Assembly (NCBI RefSeq): GCF_055900595.2
Contig: NZ_CM148325.1
DNA: 64,000 nt
Reading direction: 5' to 3' (one strand)
Below, one piece after another: positions 19,762 to 22,878 of the stretch. The position numbers and the translations under genes are program-made. The notes under the pieces are model-generated. The model searched no databases and had not been told where the DNA came from. It saw only the letters and a list, made by a program, of their open reading frames with translations. Position 1 is the stretch's first letter; each line of letters opens with the position of its first letter.

Positions 19762-19883
19762 TGTAGTTTCCCTGTACTGATAGGTGTTGAGTGCCATTGT
19801 AGTGCGATAAGGGTAAGTCATAAACCAGAATTATGTGAAGCTATGCGTTGCTGCCGCTAATCATTAGCGTTATAGTGAATCCG

Positions 19884-20134
19884 CTTATTCTCAGGGCGGG
19901 GCGAAATTCCCCACCGGCGGTAAATCAACTCAGTTGAAAGCCCGCGAGCGCTTTGGGTGCGAACTCAAAGGACAGCAGATCCGGTGTAATTCCGGGGCCG
20001 ACGGTTAGAGTCCGGATGGGAGAGAGTAACGATTCTGTCGGGCATGGACCCGCTCACGTTATTTTGGCTATATGCCGCCACTCCTAAGACTGCCCTGATT
20101 CTGGTAACCATAATTTTAGTGAGGTTTTTTTACC
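19884..20134 (+). promoter_or_regulatory. FMN riboswitch (RFN element) in ribB leader (sroG region)
   Basis: Conserved RFN aptamer motifs (ttctcagggcggggcgaaattcccc...ggacagcagatccggtgtaattccggggccgacggttagagtccggatgggagag); preceded by promoter TTGCTG(19848)-17-TATAGT(19871). Confidence 0.75.
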
Positions 20135-20788: not shown

Positions 20789-20820
20789 AAACCGCTGCTT
20801 AATTTACCGCGTTAATCAAT

Positions 20821-21528
20821 AAATATCCTCCGGCATAGCCGGAGGTTTTTCAAATGCGCCTGTAAGGCTCTGTTACCAGCCGCGCCCTAACAGGCGCATA
20901 CGATCTGACATTTGCATTCAACTTCGTTACTTACGGCCCGTAAACGGGCTGCCCGGATATGGAATCGATAACTGCTCCCCCATTTTATCCTCTTCAAGCT
21001 GGTGCTTTATGTAGTCCTGTATCTTCGCCGTGTTCTTACCCACCGTATCGACATAGTACCCTCGGCACCAGAACTCCCTGTTTCTGTATTTGAATTTCAA
21101 ATCCCCAAACTGCTCGTAAAGCATCAGACTGCTTTTCCCTTTCAGATATCCCATAAAGCCGGATACGCTCATTTTGGGTGGGATTTCCACAAGCATATGG
21201 ATATGATCTGCGCAGCACTCTGCTTCCAGAATCCGTACGCTTTTCCACTCACACAGCTTTCTCAAAATACTGCCTATCGCCCTACGCTTCTCTCCGTAAA
21301 ACGCCAGTCTTCGGTATTTCGGCGCAAAAACTATGTGATATTTACAGTTCCAGCGGGTGTGCGCTAAGCTCTTTTCGTCCCCCATTGGGACCCCCTTTTG
21401 ATTTCTTGTTTGACACTTGCAGTTGCCAGACCGCAAGGTGTTTTAACAAATCAAAAGGGGTTTTAATAACTGGCTCAAAGCTGAAAGCTTTCCGGAACCC
21501 CCAGCCTAGCTGGGGGTTTTCTGTGCAC
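20821..21528 (-). mobile_element. IS200 insertion sequence (~708 bp); ends inferred (+/-20 bp)
   Basis: 152-aa IS200 TnpA; left end (high coordinate) inferred from hairpins at 21495-21517 and 21391-21460, which match the recalled IS200 leader positions (nt 12-34 and 69-138). Confidence 0.65.
20927..21385 (-). CDS. tnpA: IS200 transposase TnpA (Y1/HUH)
   Basis: MGDEKSLAHTRWNCKYHIVFAPKYRR...HIHMLVEIPP...; 152 aa from second in-frame ATG. Confidence 0.9.
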   Translation of the reverse strand: MGDEKSLAHTRWNCKYHIVFAPKYRRLAFYGEKRRAIGSILRKLCEWKSVRILEAECCADHIHMLVEIPPKMSVSGFMGYLKGKSSLMLYEQFGDLKFKYRNREFWCRGYYVDTVGKNTAKIQDYIKHQLEEDKMGEQLSIPYPGSPFTGRK

Positions 21529-21530
21529 AA

Positions 21531-21565
21531 GAAACCGAAGCTATTACTGGCTTCGGTTTTTATTT
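21531..21565 (+). terminator. Rho-independent terminator, probably the native ribB terminator displaced by IS200
   Basis: gaaaccgaagc-tattactg-gcttcggttt followed by TTTATTTT, immediately outside the inferred IS200 left end. Confidence 0.5.
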
Positions 21566-21761
21566 TGCTCTTGTTATGCAAGATGTTAATTCCTCTTCTC
21601 TTTCTATGAGAAAATTTCATTAATATCAGGCATTCTTTTCCATTATGATCAAAATCATATAATTGTTCCGTTATTATGCGACCATATGAATATATCCGAA
21701 AAAGGATATGTGAATTTTATGCGCTAAATGTTTAGTATTGTTAAATATTAAGGGTAAAAGG

Positions 21762-21932
21762 ATGTTTATCGCCTGGTACTGGATTGTATTGATTGCTCTG
21801 GTTGTGGTGGGTTATTTACTGCATTTGAAACGTTATTGTCGGGCGTTTCGTCAGGACAGAGACGCACTGCTTGAAGCGCGGAATAAATACTTAAACAGTA
21901 CGAGAGAAGAGACAGCCGAGAAGGTAGAATAG
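21762..21932 (+). CDS. small (56 aa) single-TM membrane protein, unnamed
   Basis: RBS aagggtaaaagg-ATG; N-terminal hydrophobic helix then charged tail; followed by a 12-bp-stem hairpin (21950-21980). Confidence 0.4.
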   Translation: MFIAWYWIVLIALVVVGYLLHLKRYCRAFRQDRDALLEARNKYLNSTREETAEKVE

Positions 21933-21949
21933 GGCTTTAGTGAAGCTGG

Positions 21950-21980
21950 CAGAAGTTGTCCATGCGCTGGACAACTTCTG
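21950..21980. terminator. bidirectional terminator hairpin between small ORF and zupT
   Basis: cagaagttgtcc-atgcgct-ggacaacttctg perfect 12-bp stem, T-rich 3' flank. Confidence 0.55.
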
Positions 21981-21989
21981 ATGTTGCTT

Positions 21990-22763
21990 TTAACCAATTC
22001 CCGCCGTTTGTAGTAGCACTAAACTGAATCCCATCACTGACATTCCACATAGCACGCCATAGCTGGGGTTATTATTGGGGTCAATCTCTTTAGCTAGCGG
22101 CATTAATTCATCAACCGAGAGCGCCACCATAATTCCTGCAACCGCCGCCATGATTGCCGCCATGACCACCGGAGAAATCATGCTACCGAGGATTAACCAC
22201 GCCAGAACACCACCAAGAATTTCTGCCAGCCCAGAAATGCCCGCCCACAAAATTGCGGTGCGTTTTGACCCCGTTGCCGCGTAAACCGGCCCCGCAACTG
22301 CCAGACCTTCAGGAATATTATGCAATGCAACAGCCAGCGCGATGCCAAAGCCCAGCTCCAGGTTACTGCTCGCCGTGACAAAGGTGGCAATGCCTTCCGG
22401 GAAGTTATGCAGACTGATGCCGAGAGTGAGCAGAATGGCTGTGCGCTTGATCGATTTTGGCAACGGCTGCACCGATTTTTGCATTAAATCCTGCGGATGC
22501 GCATGTGGCAACATGCGGTCCAGACCAAAATAGCCAAGCAGACCGAAGATAAACATTCCATAACCCAGCACAGGCGACATTCCTTCGGCGGCTAATGCGG
22601 CAGGAAGCATTTCCATTAATGAGATGAGCAACATAATCCCCGCCGCAAATCCTAGCGAAAACGCCAGTAAGCGGTTCGAGGGTTTTTGTCCGAGAACGCC
22701 GAGAAACGCGCCAATAAACGTGGCTGCCCCCGCCAGTATGGTCAGAATGAGAGGTACTGACAT
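21990..22763 (-). CDS. zupT: ZIP-family zinc transporter ZupT
   Basis: 257-aa membrane ORF from [20 protein letters not shown]... Confidence 0.88.
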
Positions 22764-22878
22764 CGACAACTCCTTATAAATCTTTACCTTCAGGCAGATC
22801 GTCAAAATAACTGATGATCATCATCATTGTTATCCGGGTTCTTACTCCGCCGAACAAGCGTATTGTGAGGATATCAAA

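Follow-up and report, generated by a model that had tools for sequence, protein, structure and literature searches.

Conservation, predicted topology and candidate partners of YqiD, an annotated small protein encoded beside zupT in Escherichia coli

The stretch of DNA analysed here (the window) comprises 64,000 nucleotides (nt) of contig NZ_CM148325.1 from RefSeq assembly GCF_055900595.2, numbered from its first letter. On the forward strand, the open reading frame (ORF) list and translation place a 56-codon ORF with an ATG at 21762 and a TAG at 21930–21932, encoding MFIAWYWIVLIALVVVGYLLHLKRYCRAFRQDRDALLEARNKYLNSTREETAEKVE. This is exactly the peptide picked out by the first-pass annotation, a model's reading of the sequence made without database searches. 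The same reading described the gene as unannotated-looking, which is wrong: RefSeq E. coli genomes already carry this ORF as yqiD ("protein YqiD"). Based on the ORF, the annotation match and the signature of purifying selection, the yqiD coding sequence (CDS; 56 aa plus stop) was assigned to positions 21762–21932 (+).

A BLAST search with positions 21560–22000 gave a match in 5,424 of 5,426 complete E. coli genomes, and the feature beneath it is "yqiD: protein YqiD". Strain EC42405 has 100% nucleotide identity at the locus, and its CDS, WP_000469268.1, starts and stops where the window ORF does and has an identical product; the K-12 MG1655 record carries the same annotation. The b-number of yqiD is b4756, and in K-12 the gene lies between zupT and ribB at K-12 positions 3183381–3183551 (VanOrsdel et al. 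2018, PMC6001520), the same position and orientation as in the window. The K-12 YqiD sequence printed in that paper is identical to the window protein at 55 of 56 residues (F19 in K-12, L19 here). It is thus virtually certain that the ORF is the real yqiD gene. The gene is already known, being named, annotated and shown to be translated, so the first-pass finding is correct and not new: yqiD is no discovery and belongs to the many validated E. coli small proteins without an assigned function. In the searchable literature we found no function, partner, phenotype or measured membrane localization for YqiD, and searches for the palindrome described below, for b4756 or for a small protein together with ZupT found nothing about function.

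In EC42405 the gene order is ubiK, FMN riboswitch, ribB, yqiD, zupT, ygiD and ygiC. The riboswitch upstream of ribB was also recovered in the window (19883–20031, 121 bits) and is annotated so in reference genomes. As the first pass had described, yqiD lies between an IS200 copy on its left and zupT on its right; the latter (21990–22763, −) encodes a ZIP-family metal importer and is convergent with yqiD. The IS200 copy (711 bp, 20819–21529, tnpA on the minus strand) was delimited by empty-site comparison and by its tnpA ORF, and matching records annotate an "IS200/IS605 family transposase". Here the window strain differs from K-12: the element sits upstream of the yqiD promoter region, in the gap that separates ribB from its terminator hairpin (21530–21561, +); this hairpin bounds the native upstream region of yqiD on the left. 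Where the IS is absent, in strain EC42405, the hairpin lies about 30 nt past the ribB stop, and ribB in the window is now separated from its own terminator because IS200 sits between them. The 200 nt from the ribB terminator to yqiD are identical to the IS-free strain, as is the CDS (100% identity of both to other annotated strains in this comparison), so the control region of yqiD is intact despite the insertion; tnpA reads away from yqiD.

No match spanning the IS and both flanks was found among the 5,426 complete E. coli genomes; the best matches listed for the IS query cover 86–87% of the query, which corresponds to the IS alone, and related strains have 16–18 IS200 copies elsewhere. An Rfam match to STnc490 (146 bits, 21395–21518, −) falls in the IS200 tnpA leader region.

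A Shine–Dalgarno sequence read directly from the sequence, AAGGG at 21750–21754 (+), ends 7 nt before the ATG, which bears out the good ribosome-binding site noted in the first pass, and it is kept as TAAGGGTAAAAG in 29 loci from Escherichia to Citrobacter, Salmonella and Intestinirhabdus. A longer, 64-aa version starting from a TTG at 21738 was considered and is unsupported: several Escherichia, Salmonella and Citrobacter loci carry a 1-nt indel (an additional A ahead of the ATG) that shifts the TTG out of frame.

Downstream, sequence and folding place a terminator-like hairpin at 21950–21980 (+), beginning 18 nt past the yqiD stop, with a 13-bp stem containing 6 GC pairs, a 5-nt loop and then ATGTTGCTTTT. 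A 71-nt fold around it has a free energy of −25 kcal/mol (z = −3.7 versus shuffles) and, with the tail ATGTTGCTTT, it has the stem and tail of an intrinsic terminator, with an efficiency made uncertain by the interrupted U-run. The first pass had called this a very strong terminator with a 12-bp stem; its place directly downstream stands, but the stem is 13 bp and the T-tract is imperfect. With no T-run on the minus strand, the hairpin is not an obvious terminator for zupT. Among 15 loci examined, 10 have a hairpin with a different stem at the same place, and it is absent where the yqiD–zupT spacer is 9–22 nt. In the spacers compared (L001–L030), hairpins with differing stems were seen in most Escherichia, Salmonella and Citrobacter freundii-group loci; C. 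amalonaticus/sedlakii-type loci, Intestinirhabdus, Enterobacter kpr-6 and Phytobacter lack one, their stop codons being 9–22 nt apart.

We identified 108 relatives of YqiD in a search of 5.8 billion proteins; those with names belong to Escherichia, Citrobacter and Salmonella, and part of the set bears the label DUF4051. A one-genome-per-species scan gave 30 loci from several species of Escherichia and from Citrobacter, Salmonella, Intestinirhabdus, an Enterobacter, Phytobacter and Kosakonia. The frame is intact and begins with ATG in 32 of 32 related loci, encoding 56–60 aa (70 aa in Phytobacter and Kosakonia), and both frame and start codon persist down to 37–39% protein identity in the latter two genera. 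Estimates of dN/dS, obtained by the Nei–Gojobori method over codons 1–45 with each sequence compared to that of the window, range from 0.06 to 0.14, with between-genera dS at or near saturation, and variable columns number 23, 19 and 40 at codon positions 1, 2 and 3. Conservation of the frame and constraint judged against synonymous sites were two checks suggested in the first pass; the unbroken frames answer the first, and the low dN/dS and dominant third-position variation the second. As judged from these comparisons, yqiD is under strong purifying selection; Escherichia and its close relatives have inherited the gene vertically.

Constraint is uneven along the protein. The proportion of nonsynonymous differences (pN) is lower in residues 23–42 (0.084) than in the membrane span (0.143), and the invariant columns of the family alignment are M1, I3, W5, R24, C26, A28, R30, D32, R33, D34 and A35. 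Eight of these form a core, R24-x-C26-x-A28-x-R30-x-D32-R33-D34-A35, that follows directly on the membrane helix; the C-terminal tail varies but stays acidic.

The family is small and occurs in only some of the Enterobacteriaceae. When 1.84 billion cluster representatives were searched exhaustively with a profile, 22 proteins scored E < 0.001, essentially all of them members of the yqiD family or fragments, and one WD-repeat protein matched by chance; the family amounts to about 20 clusters at 50% identity, and its further named members come from Enterobacter spp., Kosakonia cowanii, Phytobacter massiliensis and an Atlantibacter. Scans of YqiD against NCBIfam, Pfam and PADLOC gave sub-threshold matches or none, and a profile search of PDB sequences gave no match. 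NCBI and UniRef apply the label DUF4051 to homologues from Citrobacter, Salmonella, Kosakonia and E. coli that align with YqiD over its full length and have the N-terminal helix and CRAFRQDRDA core in common with it. We treat the label as source annotation because no DUF4051 model matched in the Pfam-A copy searched, which gave just sub-threshold matches to unrelated DUFs.

Translation of yqiD has been demonstrated experimentally in K-12. YqiD carrying a chromosomal SPA tag was detected by immunoblot in rich medium, yqiD was positive in tetracycline ribosome profiling, and YqiD is among the proteins described as mostly abundant (VanOrsdel et al. 2018, PMC6001520). Epitope tagging and ribosome profiling, which the first pass had put forward as further checks, were therefore already published for K-12, with a positive immunoblot and a ribosome-profiling signal, respectively. 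The two outcomes that the first pass had named as refuting, a reading frame not kept in related genomes and a missing ribosome footprint, thus both turned out the other way, in favour of the gene. Two other studies bear on expression. In a pangenome study based on a genome-wide association study (GWAS) of cis non-coding variants, yqiD was among four genes with concordant cis-variant effects, the three methods concordant for yqiD being GWAS, promoter modelling and a reporter assay. In enteroaggregative E. coli (EAEC) strain 042, the DUF4051-family gene orf3334 was one of three genes expressed at a higher level in an aar mutant, and we infer that orf3334 is the yqiD allele of that strain.

Hydropathy and charge agree with the architecture proposed in the first pass, one predicted N-terminal transmembrane helix followed by a charged tail, basic and then acidic. 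Residues 2–20 are hydrophobic (Kyte–Doolittle mean of 2.48 over 19 residues), five lysines or arginines fall in residues 23–35 and there is no charge before the helix. An AlphaFold model computed with the family alignment is a single continuous helix over residues 3–55 (mean pLDDT of 74). Judged by its hydrophobic helix and the distribution of positive charge, YqiD is predicted to be a single-pass small protein of the inner membrane. It would insert there as an N-out/C-in helix, because only Met1 precedes the hydrophobic stretch and five K/R residues follow it, as the positive-inside rule predicts for this orientation. With that topology the R-x-C-x-A-x-R-x-DRDA helix would be cytoplasmic and directly below the membrane, so that YqiD would present a continuous, conserved basic–acidic helix (approximately residues 23–42) on the cytoplasmic face, followed by the variable acidic tail.

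Several enterobacterial small membrane proteins, including MgtS, MntS, AcrZ, KdpF and CydX, act by binding larger membrane proteins. YqiD is like MgtS, MntS, AcrZ, KdpF and SgrT in its size class, its single helix and its own promoter or small transcription unit, and it likewise has a metal-transporter gene nearby; it has no sequence similarity to them, and what it has in common with them is architecture alone. By this analogy, the conserved cytoplasmic helix may bind, modulate or stabilize a larger membrane protein, and partner binding would be the most likely mode of action because constraint is concentrated on the juxtamembrane helix and not on the membrane span. That YqiD serves a larger inner-membrane protein as an accessory or modulatory subunit is a plausible reading that we hold tentatively, and the "regulatory membrane protein" of the first pass is a label by analogy only. 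A metal-binding role was also considered, given His21 and Cys26 (and Cys20 in Citrobacter and Salmonella) at the cytoplasmic edge of the membrane, and is weakened because the distant members P0117 and P0120 are without His21 and Cys26.

The best candidate partner would be ZupT, the neighbouring metal importer. The yqiD gene is convergent with and adjacent to zupT in 32 of 32 loci, including those in which 0.5–3.5 kb of unrelated DNA lies between it and ribB. The distance between yqiD and ribB varies from about 0.2 kb to >3.5 kb through insertions, among them the yqi fimbrial operon in E. coli strains SaT040 and 042 and, in one metagenomic relative, an assT-dsbL-dsbI cluster. The order ribB-yqiD-zupT-ygiD is kept in Kosakonia and in another metagenomic relative. 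The adjacency is nevertheless weak evidence for a partnership, because the two genes are convergent and not co-transcribed and because local gene order is conserved across the Enterobacteriaceae anyway. The palindrome that yqiD has in common with the zupT–ygiD promoter region (described below) also counts for the link; family members located away from zupT and the reported constitutive expression of zupT count against it. ZIP transporters are, moreover, far more widespread than the YqiD family, and therefore ZupT does not need YqiD. We thus regard ZupT specifically as the leading candidate but a weak one, and a YqiD–ZupT partnership as unlikely. Taken as a whole, the explanation that we prefer, in which yqiD is a genuine gene for an N-out/C-in membrane protein with a partner-binding cytoplasmic helix and ZupT is one candidate for the partner, is probable.

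In one relative, a 125-aa ORF (L033, 1499–1876, on a single 2-kb contig) joins ZupT residues 1–72 to a YqiD-like C-terminus. We dropped this fusion as Rosetta-stone evidence, since its layout fits an inversion of zupT and yqiD or an assembly artefact.

The rival that survives best ties YqiD to something other than ZupT: it would help to assemble, or be an accessory part of, a membrane complex that has nothing to do with zupT, or it would belong with the periplasmic aryl-sulfotransferase and DsbL–DsbI system, with the zupT adjacency simply inherited. Many of the characterized small membrane proteins are part of complexes whose genes lie elsewhere, and some family members do lie away from zupT, beside ygiC or assT-dsbL-dsbI (L034, L037 and L040). 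YqiD-like genes occur next to assT-dsbL-dsbI in other Enterobacteriaceae in three arrangements (L037, 3001–3162; L039, 3001–3204; L040, 3001–3213), and EAEC 042 retains a degenerate YqiD-like remnant between ygiC and assT (L043, 4181–4309). These assT-linked copies, however, form a diverged subgroup, about 50% identical, and both the window strain and K-12 have yqiD while the assT cluster is absent. As no data point to a partner in the assT cluster or in another complex, we consider this alternative somewhat unlikely.

The possibility that YqiD is a type I toxin-like peptide, damaging the inner membrane on accumulation and normally restrained by an antisense or overlapping RNA such as zupT read-through, is highly improbable. 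Type I toxins such as Ibs, Ldr, Hok and TisB are short hydrophobic peptides encoded intergenically, and yqiD resembles them in size, single hydrophobic helix and intergenic location; the hairpin without a minus-strand T-run could let zupT transcripts read antisense into yqiD, and Ibs-type toxins occur in the wider region of strain 042. Unlike such toxins, YqiD accumulates in normal growth, being detectable from its native locus in rich medium, and yqiD is a single syntenic copy at a fixed chromosomal position. Its strongest selection falls on a conserved, charged cytoplasmic helix and not on the hydrophobic span. No antisense RNA is known or predicted for yqiD: a consensus scan gave no minus-strand promoter-like site within or just downstream of the gene, an Rfam scan gave no small RNA over it, and YqiD matched no PADLOC models or toxin families. 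That the ORF is a chance or non-functional translated frame over what is really a conserved RNA or DNA feature has in its favour an AT-rich region whose upstream 60 nt are also highly conserved as DNA, but it is excluded for practical purposes by the dN/dS values with saturated synonymous sites and predominantly third-position variation, by a frame and start kept in Phytobacter and Kosakonia, and by the published immunoblot.

Upstream of yqiD lies a conserved palindrome, ATGATCAAAATCAT (21645–21658), which we consider a candidate operator. In an extended form, TATGATC(A/G)AAATCATA (window 21644–21659), it is kept within the ~130 nt preceding the ATG, beyond which the upstream alignment is unrelated between genera, and in 28 of the 29 loci from Escherichia, Citrobacter, Salmonella and Intestinirhabdus its 14-nt core precedes the ATG by 115–118 nt, most often by 117. 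A second copy, ATGATCATCATCAT (22814–22827), lies in the divergent intergenic region between zupT and ygiD, and loci of Escherichia, Citrobacter and Salmonella keep this copy as well. By chance, 0.07 occurrences of ATGAT-N4-ATCAT would be expected in the 64-kb window, and two were observed. The CRP/FNR family recognizes the core TGA-N6-TCA, and the FNR consensus is TTGAT-N4-ATCAA. By inspection, the palindrome has this TGA-N6-TCA core and agrees with either the FNR or the CRP consensus at 8 of 10 positions.

Other explanations of the palindrome were considered and set aside. The two regions are not duplicated promoters, their local alignment score of 18 being no higher than the shuffle mean of 18.4. 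Nor is the second copy the YhaJ box of ygiD, which lies about 40 bp away and has the form TCA-N7-TGA; with the mutations reported in PMC5031710 as a guide, we place that box at approximately 22854–22866. A Fur or Zur box aligned poorly by hand (4-nt versus 1-nt spacer), and a Fur ChIP paper makes no mention of ribB, ygiD or yqiC.

A consensus scan gave a candidate yqiD promoter, TTAATA-18-TATGAT (21620–21649, +), overlapping the palindrome; it is only a candidate because promoter-like matches in the region do not exceed those in shuffles. For zupT, the Reg-Seq paper reports constitutive expression, with an RNA polymerase site only and no regulator sites. A more ambitious proposal, in which YqiD would be a dedicated partner of ZupT and a single palindrome-recognizing factor would control yqiD together with the zupT–ygiD promoter region, is very doubtful; if true, the supposedly constitutive ZupT would carry a hidden regulatory layer.

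The last ~60 nt before the yqiD start (window 21705–21755) are unusually conserved between genera and contain a direct repeat of the form ATGTGAA(A)TTTTA ... (T/A)TGTTAAAT(A/T)TTA; this region may act as a promoter or in the control of translation. In Enterobacter sp. kpr-6 the yqiD palindrome is degenerate, and in Phytobacter and Kosakonia it is missing. These three (L026 and L030–L032) have a Fur-box-like sequence, TTATGATAATAATTCTCATT, in the ~40 nt directly upstream of zupT; Escherichia, Citrobacter and Salmonella lack it.

For functional study of YqiD, the comparison offers several handles: the invariant RxCxAxRxDRDA core, the near-constant pairing with zupT, the palindrome common to yqiD and zupT–ygiD, the two deeply divergent alleles in E. 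coli and the paralogue linked to assT-dsbL-dsbI. The palindrome, the zupT pairing, the allele dimorphism and the assT-linked paralogue are leads, as yet unproven.

The second of the two alleles is found in about 985 complete E. coli genomes, for example SaT040 and EAEC 042 (L002, 1560–1730; L043, 9670–9840). Its product has 67% protein identity, with a dS of about 1.45, and the adjacent ZupT is 99.6–100% identical. SaT040 and EAEC 042, the two such genomes examined, both carry the yqi fimbrial operon between ribB and yqiD and list the allele just as "hypothetical protein", which suggests that the divergent allele came with the fimbrial island by recombination.
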